A stretch of 20,000 nucleotides of DNA from positions 107,028-127,027 of the IMG/VR virus record IMGVR_UViG_3300030380_005539. One strand, 5' to 3'. A program made the position numbers and the translations under genes. The stretch is from an uncultured virus (IMG/VR IMGVR_UViG_3300030380_005539). Its lineage: Duplodnaviria > Heunggongvirae > Uroviricota > Caudoviricetes. The notes under the pieces are model-generated. The model did not search any database, was not told the origin of the DNA, and worked only from the letters and a program-made list of their open reading frames with translations. Below are positions 787-17,118 of the stretch, piece after piece; position 1 is the first letter of the stretch, and each line of letters opens with the position of its first letter.

Positions 787-801
787 ATATTTATTAATAA
801 A
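787..801 (+). promoter_or_regulatory. Putative phage late-promoter motif ATATTTATTAATAAA
   Basis: Intergenic; identical 15-mer at 1740-1754; the core ATATTTAT recurs upstream of seven genes. Confidence 0.65.
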
Positions 802-835: not shown

Positions 836-1246
836 ATGAGAATTAAAAAAAACGATAAAGTAATTAAGTTAACTGAAAATGACTTAAAAAGAATTGTAAA
901 AAGAGTATTAACAGAACAAAATTATGATTATGAATATATAGAAAATCTAGATGACGCAAAAAAACTATATAAATTAATACTAGATGCGATGGGAGTGTTT
1001 ATGGATGATGAGGCGATTATTGAAGCTGCGTTTATGGCATTCGATAAAAATCCCGATTTATATTATGAAGCGAATGAAATCTTTAAAAATGATAATGATT
1101 ATCTTGCTGGAGATAGTTTTAAAGGGTCAGTCATGTTTGATGGAGCAGACAGTTTATTACATATGGTTAAATTAAAAATGGATACAAATAAAATATATCA
1201 TAAAAAATCTATTGCGCGTATAGCTCATGAAAATAATTTTAAATAA
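836..1246 (+). CDS. Leader-bearing hypothetical protein, possible degenerate annexin-like repeat
   Basis: 136 aa; leader KVIKLTENDLKRIVKRVLTEQ; segment DAKKLYKLILDAMGVFMDDEAIIEAAF resembles the annexin repeat start. Confidence 0.8.
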   Translation: MRIKKNDKVIKLTENDLKRIVKRVLTEQNYDYEYIENLDDAKKLYKLILDAMGVFMDDEAIIEAAFMAFDKNPDLYYEANEIFKNDNDYLAGDSFKGSVMFDGADSLLHMVKLKMDTNKIYHKKSIARIAHENNFK

Positions 1247-1257
1247 AAAAGACTAAA

Positions 1258-1701
1258 ATGGAAAAGAATATAAATAACGAAATTGAAAGAATGAAATCAT
1301 TATTTAATGAGGAAAGACTTTACGGTAATATAGAAAATGGTAAAGAAAATTTAAATGAAGGTTTAAAGTCTACATTAAAAGGTATTGGTGGAATGTTTAG
1401 AGGTACTGGATATAGTTATACTAAATATGCTTATGAATTATCTGGTGCGTTAAAAGAACTTAATGAAGAATTAGAAGAAACTATTAATGAGGTTGAAAAA
1501 ATAATAGATAAATCAAATGAATCTAAAATGAGTAATGACGCATATGATAGATTAACTCTTCATGTGGGAGATGCGATAGATACGTATAAAATGGCTATTG
1601 AGACTAATGAGATTATTATAGAAGATTTAGATTTTTCTGTTAGTTCTAATAGAGAAGACGAAAGGGCACAAGATAACCCTACTTCACAATTAGAAAGATA
1701 A
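1258..1701 (+). CDS. Leader-bearing acidic coiled-coil hypothetical protein
   Basis: 147 aa; first 24 aa are 20/24 identical to those of ORF 5482; LNE/G site, then an amphipathic helix and a heptad-like acidic region (LKELNEELEETINEVEKII). Confidence 0.85.
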   Translation: MEKNINNEIERMKSLFNEERLYGNIENGKENLNEGLKSTLKGIGGMFRGTGYSYTKYAYELSGALKELNEELEETINEVEKIIDKSNESKMSNDAYDRLTLHVGDAIDTYKMAIETNEIIIEDLDFSVSSNREDERAQDNPTSQLER

Positions 1702-1739
1702 TAAAAAACATTAAAGATTTAGTTTTTTTTAAATTTTAG

Positions 1740-1754
1740 ATATTTATTAATAAA
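1740..1754 (+). promoter_or_regulatory. Putative late-promoter motif upstream of the tail tube gene
   Basis: ATATTTATTAATAAA, identical to 787-801; core ends 38 nt before ATG 1786. Confidence 0.65.
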
Positions 1755-1785
1755 GAATAAAAAACAACGATAAAAAAAAGAAATT

Positions 1786-2274
1786 ATGGCAGATTTATTA
1801 ATGAGAATGCCGGTTCCTTATGAACCATTAAGAAAGAATAGATGGATTCTTAGATTTCCTGATGATTTAGGTATTCAAGAATGGTGGATTTCTACTGCAA
1901 GTAGACCTAAATACACTAGTGATGAAGTATCAATACCATTTTTAAATACTGAGACGTATGTTATCGGTAGATTTAGATGGGAAACAATCTCTGTTACATT
2001 TAGAGATCCAATTGGTCCTTCTGCAACACAAGCATTAATGGAATGGGTAAGATTACACTCTGAATCTGTAACTGGTAGACAAGGATACGCAGCAGGATAC
2101 AAAAAGAATGTAGAATTAGAAATGTTAGATCCAACAGGTGTAGTAGTACAAAAATGGATTTTAGAAGGTACTCAATTAAATGACGCTGATTTTGGTGGTT
2201 TAGATTATAGTTCTTCTGACTTAGCAGACATTACATGTACATTAAGGTTTGATAGAGCAATTAACGTATTCTAA
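1786..2274 (+). CDS. Tail tube protein (T4 gp19-like)
   Basis: 162 aa; YEPLRKNRWILRF, RPK..EVSIPFLN..YVIGRFRWETISVTFRDP, LMEWV, YKKNVELEMLDPTGVVVQKWILEG, GGLDYSS..ITCTLRFD follow the gp19/contractile tube pattern; followed by a strong terminator. Confidence 0.92.
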   Translation: MADLLMRMPVPYEPLRKNRWILRFPDDLGIQEWWISTASRPKYTSDEVSIPFLNTETYVIGRFRWETISVTFRDPIGPSATQALMEWVRLHSESVTGRQGYAAGYKKNVELEMLDPTGVVVQKWILEGTQLNDADFGGLDYSSSDLADITCTLRFDRAINVF

Positions 2275-2297
2275 ATCAAATTAACATATATAATATT

Positions 2298-2323
2298 AAA
2301 AGTCGCATAAAGCGACTTTTTCT
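2298..2323 (+). terminator. Rho-independent terminator after the tail tube gene
   Basis: Stem AAAAGTCGC (2298-2306), loop ATAAA, stem GCGACTTTT (2312-2320), continuing T-rich (TTTTTCT). Confidence 0.85.
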
Positions 2324-2332
2324 ATGCTTTTA

Positions 2333-2348
2333 AATATTTATATAAAAA
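2333..2348 (+). promoter_or_regulatory. Putative late-promoter motif AATATTTATATAAAAA
   Basis: Directly after the terminator and before ATG 2359; identical 16-mer at 9972-9987. Confidence 0.7.
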
Positions 2349-2358
2349 CTCTATTAGA

Positions 2359-5300
2359 ATGAAAATTATAATTTCCGAAACACAGTATAAAAAAGTTTTT
2401 GATAATGATTTTTTAATTATTAGTGAACAAGAAGTAGATGGAATATCTGGTGCGGCTATCTCAACTCCAAAGTTGGGAAGTGGATGGATTCAAAATAGTA
2501 CTGCACCAGGAAAAATTAATTATGGTATTAACGAGTTAAATACCTATGTCGCATGTAGACCAAAGGGGAATATAGTTGCAGGAATACCTGGTCCAGATTG
2601 GGACTGGTGTAAAGCTAGACAATATGGTGATCCTCATATGGGTGCAGTAACTTATGAATATAACGGAAAAATGGTAACCATTAAAGATTTTAATAGTAGA
2701 GCGGAAGATGATGGAAGATATTCTTATGATGTTGGGGGAAATATTCTTTCTTCTACATATGATGTACTATTAAACCCTAAAAGTGAAAAAAATATTATAA
2801 ACAACGCTATTGGGACATATAATAGTGTTTATAGTAGTTGGAATAGGTTACGAAAACTAGGTAATTGGGACGGTTTAGCATGTAATTTACTCACATTTAG
2901 TAATTCTAAAAGTAAATTAGAAGAAGTATTTAATAATCCTTATAGTAGTGGAATAGGTATTGGTAATACCAATTTATTGTGGCCAGGTGACTTAATAAAA
3001 GAATATTTTAAATTAAAAACAGTTGTTGAAGAAGATATTTTGAGTATTTGGGGTCAAGAAGCATTTAAAAAGGAACAAATAGAATTAGGTGAAAGGTATA
3101 AATTATCCCTAAAAAGGTGGAAAGAAGATTATAAAAAATGGAAACAACAATTCGGTGAGAAATATAATACCATACAAAACTCCATTAATGATATCATAAA
3201 TAGTAAAAATAATGCTTTTGCAATAGAAGATTATAGAAATAATTCATGGAGAGATCAAGACAGTAATGATCCATCTAAGTACAGACCTAATTATGTTAAT
3301 AATTTACTAACTAACAATACTTACCAAAGTGATTTAGAAAATGATCCTAAACCAGTTGATTGGTATGCATTACTTAAAGAATTAGAATCACAAATAGGTG
3401 AAATTAAATTACCTAGAAAGTTAACTAAAAAAGAACCTATACAGAAATTCCAAAATTGGTTAGACAAAAATTACCCAACTCAGTGGACTACAACAGGTAA
3501 ACCTTTAAATAAAAAAACACCGGGTTATGGAACATTTGGGCCACAAACTACTAAAGCGTGGAAAAAATATGGACCGGTTTATTATTATCAATTAAATGGT
3601 AAAATTAAACCGCCACCAGTAAAACCTAAAGAACCAGAAATAAGAGATTTAGCACAAAGAAATATGGGTGAAAAAAGTAATTTAGAACAAATGATTGAAA
3701 CTTATTTACATATTATAGACGCCTCAGCAAGTCATAATGAAAGGTTTGAGAGTCAAAGTGCGAGTAAATATAAAGAATATTGTAGTAAACCCGTAGGAGA
3801 TTTTAGAAACCCATCAGATGGTAAAGTAAGATGGAATCCAAATAGTAGGAACACCTGGAAAACGGACTGGTTTGATGAATATGGACGCCCAAAACAAGTG
3901 GTTGCCGAATCAAAAAAACATAAAATAGATGAACAAATAATAGTAGTCCCACCTGTACCTTATTATGATGTTGAAAAATCATTCGATTATAAAGATAATG
4001 ATAAAAATACTTTTAATCTTGTGTGTAGTCAAAAGAATCTAGGTGGTGTATGGTGGTACAGTGGAGGTAAAAATTTAGGAACTTGTGGTTGTGTTAATAA
4101 CCCAACTAATTCATTTAAATTAAATGGATCAACTATTAATATGTCTAAAATTGTTGAGTATAGTGCGGTAGAGAATGATGTACGAAGTTTATGGGAAAAA
4201 ACTTCTGATTGGGCTAGTAAGTGTGTAGGTGATTGGCATTGTATTGCAGATGTAGCATCTATTGCAGTATTATTTATACCCGTACCAGGATTAAATGTGG
4301 CATTATCTGCTGCGATTGATGGTGTGAGTGCTGCTGGGTATGTAATTGAACAAGATGAGGGTTGGGAATTAAATGCGGGATTAACTTTAGTAGGTGCATT
4401 GTTTAGTGGAGCAGAAGCGATGAAATTTACAAATAAAGCATTAAAAGGTGGTTTAAAGAATGTAAAATGGACTAAAGCTTTAGGTGAAATAACAACGGAG
4501 TTAAATGATAAAGCATTTAAGAATACACTTGAGGGTATGACTAAATCAGAAGCGGCGGATGTATGGAGTAAAAAATTAAGAGATTTAGTTTCAGAATATT
4601 CATCTAAGGAAATAAAACAATTATCTGATGTGATAGACGCTTTTCAAAAAATGCCAAATAAAGCGGTAGACGGTTTGGAAAAAATAATGAGAAGTATGAA
4701 AAACTTAACTCCAAAAGAAAAAGAAATTTTACAACAGTTAACAAAAAAAGGAGTTAAAAAAGATAAACTTAAACCATTTCTAGATGATTTAATAAAGGTA
4801 GATTATGACATTAAAAAAGTTATAAAAAAATATATACCTAAGTTTAGTAATAAAGAAGCTTTAATACAAGCAACTTTATTTGGGTTAGTACAAGGTTATG
4901 GAGAAGAAATTGGTAAGGCATTAAGTAAAGGTTTTGACGCATTAAAAAAGTTTACAGGTTACGATATAGATAATAAACTTACTTCTAAAGAAGATATTAA
5001 TAAAAAAGACGCTTCTTCATTAGCGATAAAACAAAAAATAGAAGATTTAGCTAGTTATTATTTATTAGCACATATGATAGATATTGAAACTAGAATAGGT
5101 GTAGGTAATTTACTAAGTAAATATGATATTAAAGTAGAAAAAAATGTAAGAGATATAGTATTTAATGGGATGGAAAGTATAATAGGTAAAGTTATTTTAG
5201 AAAAAACAGGTAAATGGTTGAGAGAAATAACAGATACTGCCACTCAAATGGAAAAGGAAGGTAAACCTACAGAAGAAATTAAAACTTTTATTATAACAAA

Positions 5301-5451
5301 ATATGATGAAATATTAGAATTATTAGAAAATGCCCCCGAACAAGATAAATTAAAAGAGTTAGAAAAAAACTTAGAAATAGAAAATAATAAAAACGAAGAA
5401 TTTAGTGAGGCAGATAAAGAAAATGCCAAACATTGGGGTATTGAATTGTAA
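2359..5451 (+). CDS. Large leader-bearing multidomain protein (PG-binding-like domain, Cys motif, pre-toxin-like hydrophobic hairpin, helical C-terminus)
   Basis: 1030 aa; leader MKIIISETQY..IISEQ; FQNWLDKNYP..GYGTFGPQTTKAWKKYG (about 3448-3573); HCIADVASIAVLFIPVPGLNVALSAAIDGVSAAGY..NAGLTLVGAL (about 4231-4410). Confidence 0.85.
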   Translation: MKIIISETQYKKVFDNDFLIISEQEVDGISGAAISTPKLGSGWIQNSTAPGKINYGINELNTYVACRPKGNIVAGIPGPDWDWCKARQYGDPHMGAVTYEYNGKMVTIKDFNSRAEDDGRYSYDVGGNILSSTYDVLLNPKSEKNIINNAIGTYNSVYSSWNRLRKLGNWDGLACNLLTFSNSKSKLEEVFNNPYSSGIGIGNTNLLWPGDLIKEYFKLKTVVEEDILSIWGQEAFKKEQIELGERYKLSLKRWKEDYKKWKQQFGEKYNTIQNSINDIINSKNNAFAIEDYRNNSWRDQDSNDPSKYRPNYVNNLLTNNTYQSDLENDPKPVDWYALLKELESQIGEIKLPRKLTKKEPIQKFQNWLDKNYPTQWTTTGKPLNKKTPGYGTFGPQTTKAWKKYGPVYYYQLNGKIKPPPVKPKEPEIRDLAQRNMGEKSNLEQMIETYLHIIDASASHNERFESQSASKYKEYCSKPVGDFRNPSDGKVRWNPNSRNTWKTDWFDEYGRPKQVVAESKKHKIDEQIIVVPPVPYYDVEKSFDYKDNDKNTFNLVCSQKNLGGVWWYSGGKNLGTCGCVNNPTNSFKLNGSTINMSKIVEYSAVENDVRSLWEKTSDWASKCVGDWHCIADVASIAVLFIPVPGLNVALSAAIDGVSAAGYVIEQDEGWELNAGLTLVGALFSGAEAMKFTNKALKGGLKNVKWTKALGEITTELNDKAFKNTLEGMTKSEAADVWSKKLRDLVSEYSSKEIKQLSDVIDAFQKMPNKAVDGLEKIMRSMKNLTPKEKEILQQLTKKGVKKDKLKPFLDDLIKVDYDIKKVIKKYIPKFSNKEALIQATLFGLVQGYGEEIGKALSKGFDALKKFTGYDIDNKLTSKEDINKKDASSLAIKQKIEDLASYYLLAHMIDIETRIGVGNLLSKYDIKVEKNVRDIVFNGMESIIGKVILEKTGKWLREITDTATQMEKEGKPTEEIKTFIITKYDEILELLENAPEQDKLKELEKNLEIENNKNEEFSEADKENAKHWGIEL

Positions 5452-5469
5452 ACATTATATAATATAGTT

Positions 5470-5481
5470 ATATTTATTAAT
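5470..5481 (+). promoter_or_regulatory. Putative late-promoter motif ATATTTATTAAT abutting the start codon
   Basis: Core ATATTTAT at 5470-5477; ATG at 5482. Confidence 0.6.
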
Positions 5482-6363
5482 ATGGAGAAAAAAATTAATG
5501 AGGAAATTGAACGAATTAAAAGTCTTTTTACTGAAGAGAGACTTTATGGTAATTTAGTTAAGGAACAAGTTACCAATCCCGATTCTAATGGTGATTTTGT
5601 AATAGATACCACAGAATTTACTGCATCTGGTAATGACATAACTGCAGATGAGGCTAAATTATTCGTTAATGCCTATCATACCGCAAACCCAACTAGAAAC
5701 ACTGAAGTAGGACATTGTATTAATCAATCAGTAATTCAAATGATGATTAAAAAATTTCCTAGATTGGTGGAAAGTCCTATGAATTATGGAGTAACAAGTT
5801 TAGGGGGTAAATGTTACCTATACTCCAACAATAGAGGTACAATTAGTTATCCAGCACAAATAACTAAATTAGAATTTTGGCAAAATGATTGGATTACTTT
5901 TTATGTAACTCTTAAGACACCTATTGATTTATCAACTGAAGATAGTTATAAAAAAACATTCAATAAAAATTGGAGTAATACTAAAGCGGTAACTCCCGGC
6001 ACAATAGAAATGAGGGTAAAACTCAATGAGACTGCTAACCGAACAGAAAAGATAAAATATTTACAATATAAAGCACCTATAACTAACTTAGGTACTACTG
6101 CTACTACATCAACATACGGTCAAATAACTTTTATGAATTTTTATGATGAAAGTGGTAACAAAAAAACTATTCAGTCATTAATTGATAAAATTGATGAATC
6201 AAGTGTATACGGTGGATGGATGGCCGGTGATGGTACAGGTAGTACATATCAATATGATCCTGATGGTGTAGATATGGATGGTTTATTACAAGATACAAAT
6301 ACTACAAATTTAACTGTTAGTGGAGGAGATATTAAAGAAATGGTAGTTAACTTAATTAGATAA
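5482..6363 (+). CDS. Leader-bearing hypothetical protein (Thr/Asp-rich; EF-hand-like loop)
   Basis: 293 aa; leader MEKKINEEIERIKSLFTEERLYGNLVKEQ; DSNGDFVIDTTE loop at 5581-5616. Confidence 0.85.
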   Translation: MEKKINEEIERIKSLFTEERLYGNLVKEQVTNPDSNGDFVIDTTEFTASGNDITADEAKLFVNAYHTANPTRNTEVGHCINQSVIQMMIKKFPRLVESPMNYGVTSLGGKCYLYSNNRGTISYPAQITKLEFWQNDWITFYVTLKTPIDLSTEDSYKKTFNKNWSNTKAVTPGTIEMRVKLNETANRTEKIKYLQYKAPITNLGTTATTSTYGQITFMNFYDESGNKKTIQSLIDKIDESSVYGGWMAGDGTGSTYQYDPDGVDMDGLLQDTNTTNLTVSGGDIKEMVVNLIR

Positions 6364-6372
6364 TAGAAAAAG

Positions 6373-8976
6373 ATGAAAAAAAAATTAATTTATTTAGATA
6401 AGAAAAAGTTTAACCTTATGTTAGAAAGGATGGATAATAGAGTTAATTATGACGAATCCATAAATTTGAAGAAAAAAATTTTAATTACTGAAGGTGAAGG
6501 TGGTATTGGAAAAATAATTAGAGGTTTCCTTAATAGTGGTAAATTTGTTGCAGATGAAGTAGCGGTTGTTGCAAGAGCACTAAGTGGAGATGTTGACGAA
6601 TTAAAAAAATTATTAAGAAGATTAGATGATGACCCACAGGGTTTTAAGGTTAGTTTAAATAACTCATTAGTAGATTTAGGTGTTAGTGCAAGTGCATTAA
6701 AAGGATTAGAGAATTTTATAGATAATGTACGTATAGTTGAGAAATCAAAACCTGAAGATGTTTATACAAATTTATTTTATAATTTATCTAAAGATGGTAA
6801 AACTGTAGATGAAGCAGTTAAAGAAATTGATAAGTTATGGGATGATATGCCAGAAGTTTTGAAAAGAAAAACAAATGATATTGATTTCCCATTACAAGCA
6901 ACCGATGATATAAGAATAAATATAATAAAAAATAGGGTTGGTATGAGTCCTAAATTACCAATGAATATTAGAATTAAGATTGGTGATGATATTGCTAAAC
7001 AAGCAACAAAAGGTTTGAAAAAACTTCAATTAGATGAGATGCTAAAAGGTGTTGAACTTAAAAGCCCAATTAGTGAGTATGTGGTATTAACTAATAAAAC
7101 TAGTGGTAATCATATAATAGTACATAAAAATAATGTTGGTGGTTTTGTGAATAAGTTTGAAATTGTCGGAAGTAATAAGTTTGAGATAAGTGATGGTGTA
7201 AGTTTTAGAGGTAAAGATGGTGATACTATAGTAGTAATGGATGATCTTAACTTTAAATCAGGTTTAAGTGAGGAAGAGTTAGCCATATTAAAAAATGAGT
7301 TAAAAGGTGCTAATTCTATGGAGAAAACGGAAGAATTACTTGCAGAAATAATAAAGAATCAAAGATTAAATGAAAGAGCAATTGCAAAAGTTAAAAGAAA
7401 TAAATATTGGGTTTATTCAATAGTAGGTATAGAATGGGCTTTAGAAGCATTGATACAAACTATTTCTTGTATAACTAAGGAAGATGGTGAATTAAGACGT
7501 GTAAGGAAAGATAAAATGGAACAATTTTTAGATATGGAGTATGACATGGAAACAAATCCTAATACAAAATATACTGAAAAAGATTTACTTCAGTTTACTG
7601 AACCGGTGGATTTTTTGGATTGTTTTAGGACTTTTATGAATACAGATTTAGTTGATGTAACTGACAGATATGATCCTAAAGGTTATTTTGAACATTATTT
7701 CCCCTTACCTTTATGGGGTGTAGGATCTTCAATTATAGATTATTTATTTACATTTAGTGTTGATTTACAGAGGTTACTAGGTGTGATTGATGCTAAACTG
7801 AAATCTACTATTAAACAACAAGTAAATAAACTACTAAAAAATAAAAATTTGGTTGAGATATTAAATCACAAGTGCGAATATACTAAAGAAGAAGCTTTTA
7901 ATCTGATTAAAAATGAGGGTGGGGATAATAATGAATCAGTTAAGGATTTATCAAAAATTTTAAATGTTATAGGTGTAGATGGTGAGTTTAAAAATAATTT
8001 AGTACAAAATATACTTAGTGGAAATGAAGCGTTAGCATTAACAAAAAAGGAAGTTGATGATATGAAAGATGGTGCAACTAAGGATATTAATGTTAACGTA
8101 GATGTTTCAGGATGGGATGGAATAAAAAATGGAAAGGGTATTGATTTAGCTTCTAAATTAATAAGAAAATGTCAAGCCACAAAGGCAGAATTAATTATTA
8201 CATTATTGAACGCGGCAGGAGAAAATGAAGTTGAGAGAAAATTAAATGATTTAATATTATTTACTGATGGTTCTGTATCTAAAGATGAAATAAAAACTAT
8301 GGCTAAAGATATAGGTAAGGGTAAACAAATCGATTTGGGAAGTAAATTTACAGTTTCAAATGGTAAGAAAAACACAGAAGAAGGTATTAATTTAATGGGT
8401 TTTGCAATGAATTACGGTACACAGAGAAAAACAGATATTGAAGGACCTACTGTAGCAAGAAAATATTTTCAAGACGTAAATAAGTTGGCTAGTGATGAAT
8501 TTATAGATAAACAATTTAATGCGTTAGTAGATTATATGAAAAATGATGTGTCAGATGACAATGTAGATTCTACAACTACTCGAAATTTAGATTTAGGAGT
8601 TGTAATAAATTTTGATTTAACTTTACCTGATTATAAATGGCAAAGTATCTTAAACAATAAAAGTGTAGAGGAGGGTTGTAATATTATGAAAGCAACTATG
8701 TATAATTTTGCTGCAAAAAGTAAATTTAAACCCTTTATTAGTATGTTAAGTCCCGATAATGAAGGTGAATTGTATACAAAACATGAAGATGTAAATGGTA
8801 ATCCTTCATTTCAATTTATTATAACCGATGAAACACTTACTGAATTAGCTAAATTACCTGTTAAAGGTTGGTGTGATAAAGTTACTGCTAATGGTGAAAG
8901 AAAAGGTAAGACAAAAAGTGACTGTACTTCCGAATTAATAGAATTCGCCAAAACTTTACCTTGCTACGTAGAGTAA
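6373..8976 (+). CDS. Large leader-bearing, mostly helical hypothetical protein with central hydrophobic segments
   Basis: 867 aa; leader ends KKILITE/G; hydrophobic stretches YWVYSIVGIEWALEALIQTISCI and YFPLPLWGVGSSIIDYLFTFSV; starts 9 nt after the previous stop. Confidence 0.85.
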   Translation: MKKKLIYLDKKKFNLMLERMDNRVNYDESINLKKKILITEGEGGIGKIIRGFLNSGKFVADEVAVVARALSGDVDELKKLLRRLDDDPQGFKVSLNNSLVDLGVSASALKGLENFIDNVRIVEKSKPEDVYTNLFYNLSKDGKTVDEAVKEIDKLWDDMPEVLKRKTNDIDFPLQATDDIRINIIKNRVGMSPKLPMNIRIKIGDDIAKQATKGLKKLQLDEMLKGVELKSPISEYVVLTNKTSGNHIIVHKNNVGGFVNKFEIVGSNKFEISDGVSFRGKDGDTIVVMDDLNFKSGLSEEELAILKNELKGANSMEKTEELLAEIIKNQRLNERAIAKVKRNKYWVYSIVGIEWALEALIQTISCITKEDGELRRVRKDKMEQFLDMEYDMETNPNTKYTEKDLLQFTEPVDFLDCFRTFMNTDLVDVTDRYDPKGYFEHYFPLPLWGVGSSIIDYLFTFSVDLQRLLGVIDAKLKSTIKQQVNKLLKNKNLVEILNHKCEYTKEEAFNLIKNEGGDNNESVKDLSKILNVIGVDGEFKNNLVQNILSGNEALALTKKEVDDMKDGATKDINVNVDVSGWDGIKNGKGIDLASKLIRKCQATKAELIITLLNAAGENEVERKLNDLILFTDGSVSKDEIKTMAKDIGKGKQIDLGSKFTVSNGKKNTEEGINLMGFAMNYGTQRKTDIEGPTVARKYFQDVNKLASDEFIDKQFNALVDYMKNDVSDDNVDSTTTRNLDLGVVINFDLTLPDYKWQSILNNKSVEEGCNIMKATMYNFAAKSKFKPFISMLSPDNEGELYTKHEDVNGNPSFQFIITDETLTELAKLPVKGWCDKVTANGERKGKTKSDCTSELIEFAKTLPCYVE

Positions 8977-9039: not shown

Positions 9040-9825
9040 ATGGAGCAAAATATACAAAATTCTTTAGATCCTAATTATGTACCTGAAGATTTAAGAACAC
9101 CTTTCGATGTGTTAGATTTACCATCACAGGGATTATTATACGATAATAAATTAAAACAAGTTAAAGTAGAATATTTAACTGCAATGGATGAAAATATTCT
9201 TAGTTCACCTAATTTGAGTGCAAAACCAGATGTGATGATTGATTTACTTATTAAAAGAAAGGTAAAAGATTTAAATATGGATGTTAGTGAATTGTTAGAA
9301 GGAGATAGAATGGCTATTCTAATATTTTTACGTTCTACCGCTTTTGGTGAGAAATATACCCAATTAGTTTGGGATGAAAATAGTGGTGATTATGTAGAAG
9401 GTGAGATAGATTTAAGTCAGTTAAAACAAAAAAAATTAATGATTAAACCAGATGTTAATGGTGAGATAGATTTTAAATTACCTAAATCTGGAAAATTAAT
9501 TAAGTTTAAATTTTTAACATCTAAAGAAGAACAAGAAATTGATATTGCAGACAAAAGTCAGATGAAAAGAAGTAAAGAAAAAGTTTCTCAAAAAATAACA
9601 CTTAGGTTGGAGAAATGTGTTACCGAAATTGATGGTGAGAGAGATAAAATAATAATTTCAAATATCTTAAAAAAGATACCACTTATTGATTCTAGATCAT
9701 TACGAAAGTATATTGATGATAATGAACCAGGTATTGATTTTAATACAAACGCACGGATTCAGGGGGGAGAATCCGTTAGTTGCTTTCTTAGATTCGGACC
9801 GAATTTTTTATGGCCTAAACTCTGA
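9040..9825 (+). CDS. Baseplate hub / tail assembly chaperone (T4 gp26-like)
   Basis: 261 aa; LDLPSQGLLY..VEYLTAMDENIL, LLEGDRMAILIFLRSTAFGEKY, FKLPKSGKLIKFKFLT, DSRSLRKYIDDNEPGIDF and C-terminal NFLWP match the gp26-like pattern; lies between tube and tape measure. Confidence 0.8.
   Translation: MEQNIQNSLDPNYVPEDLRTPFDVLDLPSQGLLYDNKLKQVKVEYLTAMDENILSSPNLSAKPDVMIDLLIKRKVKDLNMDVSELLEGDRMAILIFLRSTAFGEKYTQLVWDENSGDYVEGEIDLSQLKQKKLMIKPDVNGEIDFKLPKSGKLIKFKFLTSKEEQEIDIADKSQMKRSKEKVSQKITLRLEKCVTEIDGERDKIIISNILKKIPLIDSRSLRKYIDDNEPGIDFNTNARIQGGESVSCFLRFGPNFLWPKL
9753..9811 (+). other. Putative programmed frameshift cassette (two hairpins plus T6 slippery run)
   Basis: ACGGATTC-AGGGGGGA-GAATCCGT perfect 8-bp stem (9753-9776); ATTCGG-A-CCGAAT inverted repeat (9792-9804); AAT TTT TTA with T run at 9804-9809; the +1 frame is open to 9958. 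Confidence 0.6.
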
Positions 9826-16791: not shown

Positions 16792-17118
16792 ATGAGTACA
16801 GAATATTATAACCGATATCAAAAATTCAACTTTAATGGTAAATACACACCGTTACCATTTATAAAAATAGAGCCTAAATCTAGTGATAAATCAGTTTTAT
16901 ATAGACAAACTCAAAGTAGAATGGACAAATTAAGTCAAGAATATTATGGAAACCCTTATCACGGTTGGTTAATTATGTTAGCTAATCCACAGTATGGGGG
17001 GGTAGAAGAGTCAATACCAAATAATGAAATAATAAGAATACCTTTTCCGTTTAAAGACAGTTTACAACAATATATTTCTGAAGTACAAAAATATCAGAAA
17101 TTAAACGGAACGGGTTAA
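16792..17118 (+). CDS. LysM-like baseplate wedge protein (T4 gp53 / P2 gpX-like)
   Basis: 108 aa; SRMDKLSQEYYGNPYHGWLIMLANP..IPNNEIIRIP matches the gp53/gpX LysM pattern (RLD.LA..YYG....W.I..AN....IRIP). Confidence 0.8.
   Translation: MSTEYYNRYQKFNFNGKYTPLPFIKIEPKSSDKSVLYRQTQSRMDKLSQEYYGNPYHGWLIMLANPQYGGVEESIPNNEIIRIPFPFKDSLQQYISEVQKYQKLNGTG

Follow-up and report, generated by a model that had tools for sequence, protein, structure and literature searches.

A leader peptide common to two genes of a phage tail module

We analyzed a stretch of 20,000 nt from an uncultured tailed phage (IMG/VR record IMGVR_UViG_3300030380_005539, positions 107,028 to 127,027), here called the window, which forms the last 20 kb of a viral contig of 127,027 bases (29.7% G+C). 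The window is the tail module of this contig, and searches of its proteins against PHROGs and Pfam named only tail parts. Two open reading frames (ORFs) of the module, at positions 1258-1701 (147 amino acids, aa) and 5482-6363 (293 aa), have nearly the same first 24 residues, MEKNINNEIERMKSLFNEERLYGN (1258-1329) and MEKKINEEIERIKSLFTEERLYGN (5482-5553); each starts at the first ATG that follows the upstream stop codon. We refer to this peptide as leader A and to the part of a protein that follows a leader as its payload.

The two leaders are identical at 20 of 24 residues, whereas their DNA is identical at 55 of 72 positions. Nine of the 20 shared residues are encoded by different codons, among them Ser (TCA/AGT), Arg (AGA/CGA) and Leu (TTA/CTT); recomputation gave the same values as the original prediction, which had been made from the letters of this sequence. 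For comparison, 7.1 codon differences are expected at synonymous saturation, i.e. for independent draws from the codon usage of the genome. By the Nei–Gojobori method the proportion of synonymous differences (pS) is 0.74 and that of non-synonymous differences (pN) is 0.14, and the ratio of non-synonymous to synonymous substitution rates (dN/dS), which the original prediction had proposed as a check, is about 0.05. Strong purifying selection acts on the leader peptide. In ungapped comparison the flanking DNA is 35% identical over 60 nt upstream and 36% over 72 nt downstream, and the non-leader remainders of the two proteins match with a BLASTP E-value of 0.33. The leader pair scores 99, compared to 44 for the best non-paralogous control among 5886 pairs of residues 36-65. 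The match is far beyond chance, and a chance origin was rejected on these scores; a signal peptide was rejected because the leader is highly charged. Saturation of the synonymous sites together with preservation of the peptide led us to reject a recent DNA repeat as well as an RNA element, in agreement with the earlier claim that the leader is conserved as a peptide.

Distribution of leader A and of its payloads

Residues 1-40 of the 293-aa protein, used as query in a word-indexed search, retrieved 95 leader-A proteins with lengths of 161-513 aa, in all of which the LYGN element ends between residues 21 and 38. Eight leaders, taken from the window and further loci, were combined into a profile (A1); run over 1.84 billion representative proteins, it matched 385 protein clusters at E ≤ 1e-3 and 49 at E ≤ 1e-10. 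The core motif is present in 210 of 212 collected proteins, and in 203 of these 210 the first motif lies within the first 26 residues. The class-A consensus reads M-K-K-N-[LI]-N-E-E-I-x-R-[IM]-K-S-L-F-T-E-E-R-L-Y-G-N-L-[VI]-(x)-E, and its consensus Arg is conserved in all 203 leader-A proteins.

The payloads are diverse. We clustered the 169 proteins with a payload of at least 100 aa after removal of the leader plus 8 residues and obtained 46 clusters at E ≤ 1e-5 and 50% coverage (38 at 30% and 53 at 70% coverage), while single linkage at E ≤ 1e-3 gave 30 clusters, one with 105 members. Because most payload-to-payload similarities begin at the payload start, many payloads have a further common N-proximal module, which places the diversity below the raw cluster count. 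Pfam searches of 58 leader-A proteins found PG_binding_1 in seven and MORN repeats in four (one protein with both) and nothing in 48. For the 293-aa protein we built an alignment (A3) from the window protein, 16 of the 18 members of its cluster and two loci, leaving out the near-identical P0001 and the truncated P0004. Ten of its 12 invariant columns are in the leader, and payload identity to the window protein falls to 20%. A payload-only search of this family for swapped leaders found only five close homologues, all with leader A.

Leader A was found almost only on viral contigs. A pattern scan of IMG/VR gave at least 115 confirmed viral loci among the first 609 pattern matches, and a single weak partial match turned up among 185,579 prokaryote species, each represented by one genome. 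No match to leaders A or B was found by tblastn in 50,697 deposited phage records, and no occurrence of the leader motif strings was found in the papers searched. In the same phage collection the 293-aa protein (tblastn) and the DNA of window positions 1000-7000 had no match either.

Leader classes, leader swap and internal leaders

Among the proteins of the contig 40 of 5886 pairs reach a score of at least 40 when residues 2-31 are compared, versus four pairs for residues 36-65. About 23 of the 119 called genes carry a leader, all of them on the plus strand. The leaders were assigned to classes by score clustering together with reading of the N-termini, partly by eye, and the looser members are uncertain. 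Class A comprises the 24-residue peptide of the 147-aa and 293-aa proteins plus looser relatives; class B reads MKIKKNGKVI-LTESDLKRIVKRVLTE, class C (from related contigs) MGRIEKQKR-IIEEANKRLLGE, class D MK-LI-KILKEE and class E MKIKLTESQLKRVL-E, and there is one possible class F. Most leader genes of the contig are located outside the tail module, many of them just upstream of the terminase–portal–protease block. A word search with leader B returned only five proteins, and the breadth of this class rests on related loci.

The 147-aa protein has orthologues in related contigs that are syntenic, lying after a gene for a HAD-like protein and before the tube gene. Leader A is present on four and leader B on five of nine such orthologues that we aligned (A2), and the payload is conserved from Glu34-Gly35 onward with 51 invariant columns. 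Regardless of the leader class, the junction in all nine consists of L, I or V, then any residue, then Glu followed by Gly. Both classes coexist in single contigs, such as L012, which has leader B on the 147-aa payload and leader A on another. Judged from this alignment, classes A and B are interchangeable on the payload, which suggests that they have a common destination.

Leaders also occur within longer proteins. In eight of 80 viral loci a homologue of the 1030-aa protein that is encoded between our two genes (E 3e-37 to 4e-24) continues in frame into a leader-A gene. This places the leader, conserved in full, about 720-840 residues into the open frame, with its Met retained, and separate internal initiation at these sites is possible. 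Four long database proteins have the same internal-leader pattern, two of them with tandem leaders. In P0103 and P0114 tandem class-A leaders were observed with the looser copy at the N-terminus and the canonical copy at residues 38-61 or 104-128. As the leader is fully conserved inside fused ORFs, it appears not to need a free N-terminus, which would fit a binding-and-cleavage module; a signal requiring a free N-terminus was rejected on the same observation.

With these data the original prediction can be made more precise. It had described an old duplication that left a portable address tag. The portability holds, given 385 clusters, about 46 payload architectures and one orthologous payload with two leader classes, but instead of one old duplication we see a module common to a whole lineage of uncultured phages and one of several classes. 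It had further placed the end of similarity right after the leader; the two payloads are unrelated, yet family-wide the conserved leader extends through L-[VI]-(x)-E. That the leader acts as an 'address', specifying the destination of the protein, is what we infer from these sequence patterns.

Predicted structures

AlphaFold2 (AF2) models were obtained for both proteins and evaluated by the predicted local distance difference test (pLDDT). For the 293-aa protein (A3, mean pLDDT 76.3) the leader is predicted as helices 2-15 and 18-23 at low confidence, followed by coil and short helices that are likewise of low confidence (pLDDT below 50 at residues 16-31 and 50-73) and by a payload with an alpha/beta domain at pLDDT 80-95. 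The model of the 147-aa protein (A2, mean pLDDT 67.3) has a helix-break-helix leader, disorder at residues 22-34 and a hairpin of helices 54-88 and 93-128 at pLDDT above 90. In both models the leader stands detached, at low confidence, ahead of a disordered linker. Since the predicted folds differ, the models argue that the two proteins are not paralogues; together with the BLASTP result this bears out the earlier view that they are unrelated. Foldseek found nothing for the 293-aa model in the PDB at E ≤ 1e-3, and the ESM Atlas gave no usable feature match for either payload. Co-prediction of the leader (A1) with a 500-aa scaffold-like protein and the S77 protease of the phage gave a score of 0.00, without controls, and speaks neither for nor against binding.

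Features of the window and the phage genome

The features of the window are listed in Table 1. Two neighbouring proteins carry class-E leaders. In the 272-aa protein the leader is directly followed by the HAD-like motifs FDWDDN, SIITAR and GFSDDD; it has no Pfam match and no phmmer match in the PDB, and its gene is kept between the sheath and tube genes in relatives. The 1030-aa protein contains a long hydrophobic Gly/Ala-rich stretch around residues 640-700 and may be an envelope-spanning ejection protein.

Table 1. Positions of leaders, payloads, promoter-like motifs and neighbouring genes in the window
Feature	Position	Strand	Basis or remark
272-aa gene, class-E leader, HAD-like motifs	3-767 (gene start 51 nt before window)		Motif reading
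Promoter-like motif ATATTTAT[AT] upstream of leader-B gene	787..795	+	Motif scan
Leader class B (MRIKKNDKVIKLTENDLKRIVKRVLTE) on 136-aa gene (836-1246)	836..916	+	Same class on 147-aa payload orthologues in L009-L015
Leader A, 24 aa, of 147-aa gene (1258-1701)	1258..1329	+	AF2: helix 2-15, break, helix 18-21, all low pLDDT
Variable linker ending L-N-E; putative cut after Glu34, before Gly35	1330..1359	+	E34 and G35 invariant in 9/9 orthologues (A2); disordered in model
Payload of 147-aa protein: conserved GLKSTLKGIGG... segment and helical hairpin	1360..1701	+	A2 alignment, AF2
Promoter-like motif ATATTTAT[AT] upstream of tube gene	1740-1748		Motif scan
Tail tube gene	1786-2274		PHROGs/Pfam
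Promoter-like motif ATATTTAT[AT] upstream of 1030-aa gene	2334..2342	+	Motif scan
Leader class E (MKIIISETQYKKVFDND) on 1030-aa gene (2359-5451)	2359..2409	+	N-terminal comparison
Promoter-like motif ATATTTAT[AT], 12 nt upstream of 293-aa gene	5470..5478	+	Motif scan
Leader A, 24 aa, of 293-aa gene (5482-6363)	5482..5553	+	10/12 invariant columns of A3 within leader
L-V-K-E, family-wide L-[VI]-(x)-E leader end, putative protease site	5554..5565	+	Motif counts across leader-A proteins
Payload of 293-aa protein: disordered stretch, then alpha/beta domain	5566..6363	+	pLDDT 80-95 from about residue 75
867-aa gene, conserved N-terminus (MKKKLIYLDKKKFNLMLERMD...), possibly sixth leader class, uncertain	6373..8976	+	Similar N-termini on syntenic genes of L004 and L006
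Baseplate hub gene	9040-9825		PHROGs/Pfam
gp53-like wedge gene	16792-17118		PHROGs/Pfam

Elsewhere in the contig family scans identified a tail sheath, a large terminase, a DNA polymerase, a ClpB/ClpC-like ATPase and Hsp20, and head genes for a T4-type portal (PF07230, 3e-77), a Peptidase_S77 prohead protease (PF03420, 1.6e-25; genome 39534-40223) and a gp23-type capsid protein (PF07068, 2e-72). The nearest deposited capsid proteins, from an uncultured-phage record, Microcystis phage Mel-JY01 and Flavobacterium phage 'immuto', are 43.3%, 42.9% and 41.7% identical over matches that cover only the C-terminal ~40% of the query. CheckV assigned completeness values of 60%, 44% and 78% to related contigs of 198 kb, 146 kb and 254 kb, respectively. 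These estimates imply a full genome of about 330 kb; the contig is a fragment of a marine T4-superfamily phage that is probably of this size. Its host is probably a member of the Bacteroidota, because TAnnTTTG motifs of the Bacteroidota type precede the genes for polymerase and methylase, and because the signal peptides of two secreted proteins are of a kind typical of this phylum. These two proteins (genome 16449-17177 and 18650-19282, minus strand; one of them DUF2927) begin with near-same signal peptides, MKKLITLLLV...SYSQ and SYTQ. The ATPase (831 aa, genome 19342-21837, minus strand) has Clp_N, two AAA modules, a UVR motif and ClpB_D2-small, and the Hsp20 gene is located at 22874-23338. 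A cluster of glycosyltransferase and nucleotide-sugar epimerase genes occupies 51-64 kb on the minus strand, with the epimerase split around a run of N at 55486-55495. Between the protease and capsid genes (40338-41840), in the position of a scaffold, a 500-aa protein is encoded that is extremely acidic and contains about five tandem YGGNKGDESRSHRDYMEEG units.

A possible capsid-targeting propeptide

By analogy with phage T4 we propose, with a probability of about one half, that leader A is a capsid-targeting propeptide that is cut off by the S77 protease. The helix-break-helix leader, with a flexible linker behind it, would attach a freshly synthesized protein to the scaffold core while the prohead assembles; the phage's own S77 prohead protease would then cut after the Glu of a hydrophobic-x-Glu motif, and the mature payload would be freed inside the head and later ejected with the DNA. 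Each of these steps, from docking through cutting and packaging to ejection, is an inference. In T4 the mutually unrelated internal proteins are loaded via a common N-terminal capsid-targeting sequence (CTS) of 10 residues, and the gp21 protease cleaves after Glu in L/I-X-E, as described in parts of PMC9026906 and PMC3012670. We favour the propeptide because of this precedent, because the protease family, the portal and the capsid protein of T4 recur in this phage, and because the leader is flanked by such motifs.

Among the 203 leader-A proteins 189 have [LIVM]-x-E before the leader core, and in 184 of the 203 [LIVMC]-x-E ends at most five residues after YGN. In an earlier set the downstream motif was present in 88 of 95 proteins, compared to 236 of 3496 (6.75%) random payload hexamers. 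The N-terminal region of the capsid protein aligns with the propeptide region of T4 gp23 and contains L-L-T-E-A about 10 residues before the position that aligns with F-L-T-E-A, where T4 gp23 is cleaved. S77 was found in three of five related contigs and in two of five further large leader-A contigs, all of them fragments that are 12-78% complete. In the 80 nt preceding a gene, the promoter-like motif ATATTTAT[AT] occurs for 12/23 leader genes and 10/16 structural genes; the corresponding counts are 10/34 for the remaining genes of the plus strand and 5/46 for those of the minus strand. Elsewhere in the genome the motif precedes the terminase, portal, protease and sheath genes. In contrast, the Bacteroidota-type TAnnTTTG was found upstream of none of the 23 leader and none of the 16 structural genes but of nine of the 80 other genes; as noted above, it precedes the DNA polymerase and methylase genes. 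These two promoter-like classes would point to early and late programmes. The PG_binding_1 payloads and the hydrophobic segment of the 1030-aa neighbour would fit proteins that leave the virion into the envelope.

Several observations weigh against this interpretation. In this AT-rich genome [LI]-x-E is more frequent than average among the first 35 residues of gene products from either strand (24.9 and 22.4 per 1000, versus 13.9 genome-wide), and since the motif is only three residues long and generally enriched at N-termini, its mere presence is weak evidence. Moreover, payloads are not depleted of [LI]-x-E, and the scaffold-like protein is only mildly enriched in it (15 observed, 9.7 expected), so that motif frequency gave no convincing distinction between cargo and scaffold. 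No similarity was found between the leader and the N-termini of T4 ipI, ipII, ipIII, alt, gp24, gp67, gp68 and gp23 (local scores of 11-23, at noise level), and whereas the leaders of T4 ipII and ipIII are identical in DNA at 30 of 30 positions, the copies here are synonymously saturated. The 147-aa and 293-aa genes are located in the tail module with the sheath, tube and baseplate-hub genes and not beside the head genes. About one-fifth of the genes of the contig carry a leader, including one for a HAD-like enzyme, which is a large number for capsid cargo. S77 was not found in the remaining five of the 10 related or leader-A contigs, all of which are incomplete. A simple model of a tag that is then cut off does not predict that R-L-Y-G-N is near-invariant past the internal F-T-E-E. 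Finally, as stated above, none of the deposited phage records contains the leader.

Alternative explanations

The position of our two genes raises the question of a tail function. Together with the adjoining leader-B and leader-E genes they lie between sheath, tube and baseplate-hub genes, and this synteny is kept in relatives, as would be expected if the leader were an assembly or cargo tag for the tail (tube lumen or baseplate), perhaps working with an AAA+ unfoldase as in contractile injection systems. Extracellular contractile injection systems do use N-terminal packing signals, the phage encodes an 831-aa double AAA+ ATPase of the ClpB/ClpC type and Hsp20, and peptidoglycan-binding payloads would suit delivery at the tail tip. 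However, most leader genes lie elsewhere, many of them just upstream of the terminase–portal–protease block, T4 likewise interleaves head and tail genes, and a tail tag offers no role for the hydrophobic-x-Glu junction or the S77 protease. A Clp-type ATPase (a 67%-identical copy) was found in only one of five other large leader-A contigs and not in the 78%-complete one, which counts weakly as all are fragments. On balance we consider a tail tag unlikely, but a serious alternative. Much the same holds for a docking helix that is never removed and binds a cytoplasmic partner unrelated to the particle, be it a chaperone, a host factor or, by hetero-oligomerisation, another leader protein. A helix-break-helix that is amphipathic and near-invariant at its R, K, F, Y, G and N residues, conservation that continues past the putative internal Glu sites, the internal segments in fused ORFs and the resemblance of one class-E protein to a HAD enzyme would all agree with docking, but the leader genes share the promoter-like motif and the strand of the structural genes, and peptidoglycan-binding payloads without a signal peptide need a route out of the cytoplasm. 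The invariant junction of hydrophobic-x-Glu and Gly across two leader classes and the restriction of the leader to viral contigs, which carry S77 where they are long enough, likewise make docking improbable.

Very improbable is an explanation at the level of nucleic acid, whether by a recent duplication, a recombination cassette, a translation-initiation element or an RNA element. The leader does begin with the start codon, which in one gene is preceded by a promoter-like motif at 12 nt, and the identical ipII and ipIII leaders of T4 indicate that recent DNA exchange occurs in the known system. Here, however, DNA or RNA elements are contradicted by the saturated synonymous sites (nine synonymous changes against 7.1 at saturation, and pS far above pN), by protein identity of 20/24 with DNA identity of only 55/72, by flanks of only 35-36% identity and by the fused ORFs, which keep the peptide far from any start codon.

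Implications and comparison with known systems

Beyond leader A we tentatively suggest, as something possible rather than probable, that the ~330-kb marine phage lineage runs an interchangeable address-tag system of at least two and perhaps five classes. It would send about one-fifth of the encoded proteins into the particle for co-injection, with a cargo that includes peptidoglycan-binding, membrane-spanning and enzyme-like proteins, and in the fused, polyprotein-like genes the peptide would have a second use as an internal linker that can be cleaved. If this is true, dozens of fast-changing proteins are packed, by means of a few short, near-invariant tags, in a group of uncultured ocean phages that is both large and abundant, and the injected repertoire is likely to include anti-defence and envelope-breaching factors. 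The tags would then provide a sequence handle for the injected-protein repertoire in metagenomes, whose genes are otherwise almost all unannotatable. Such a multi-class system would be a phage counterpart of the signal code of secretion systems and a ready-made universal cargo tag, and a natural tag of 25 residues with a built-in release site would be of interest for loading foreign proteins into phage capsids. The T4 capsid-targeting principle would have been reinvented with unrelated, longer, far more constrained and exchangeable peptides; the leader differs from the T4 CTS in the length, the extreme conservation, the several interchangeable classes, the internal occurrences and the breadth over hundreds of uncultured-virus clusters.

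In function the closest known system is that of T4, with the CTS of IPI, IPII and IPIII and the propeptides of Alt, gp24, gp67 and gp68, all cut by gp21. In both cases a short N-terminal peptide is common to otherwise unrelated, fast-evolving proteins; a portal, an S77 protease and a gp23-type capsid protein are present, and the leader genes, like the ip genes, are scattered over the genome. A hydrophobic-x-Glu motif comes after the leader, comparable to the L/I-X-E cut by gp21 (described in parts of PMC9026906). Unlike the CTS (MKTYQEFIAE, 10 residues), to which it has no sequence similarity, the leader is 24-28 residues long, i.e. about 2.5 times longer, and forms a predicted helix-break-helix; it would thus be an analogue and not a homologue of the T4 tag. 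It is near-invariant over hundreds of clusters, whereas the CTS tolerates many substitutions according to the same parts of PMC9026906. Also unlike T4, several classes (A, B and probably C-E) coexist and swap on one payload, the copies are synonymously saturated instead of identical in DNA, and leaders occur inside fused ORFs; payloads reach about 1000 aa and include peptidoglycan-binding domains.

The giant phages phiKZ, 201phi2-1 and SPN3US resemble the present case in being large, in having a diverged gp21-type protease and in their many candidate processed virion proteins. Each of their propeptides has several cleavage sites, and at these a three-residue motif is cut behind its Glu (parts of PMC9026906), to which the two such motifs flanking the leader core may be compared. 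The giant-phage motif is S/A-X-E, and so far as the same source says the propeptides are not one common near-invariant peptide. The lineage described here is T4-like in portal and capsid protein and is unrelated to phiKZ. Encapsulins load cargo through peptides that mostly sit at the C-terminus and stay on the protein, and the signals of injection systems are long, disordered and poorly conserved. What leader A would have in common with the tags of both these systems is that a short portable peptide addresses diverse cargo into a phage-derived shell or tube.

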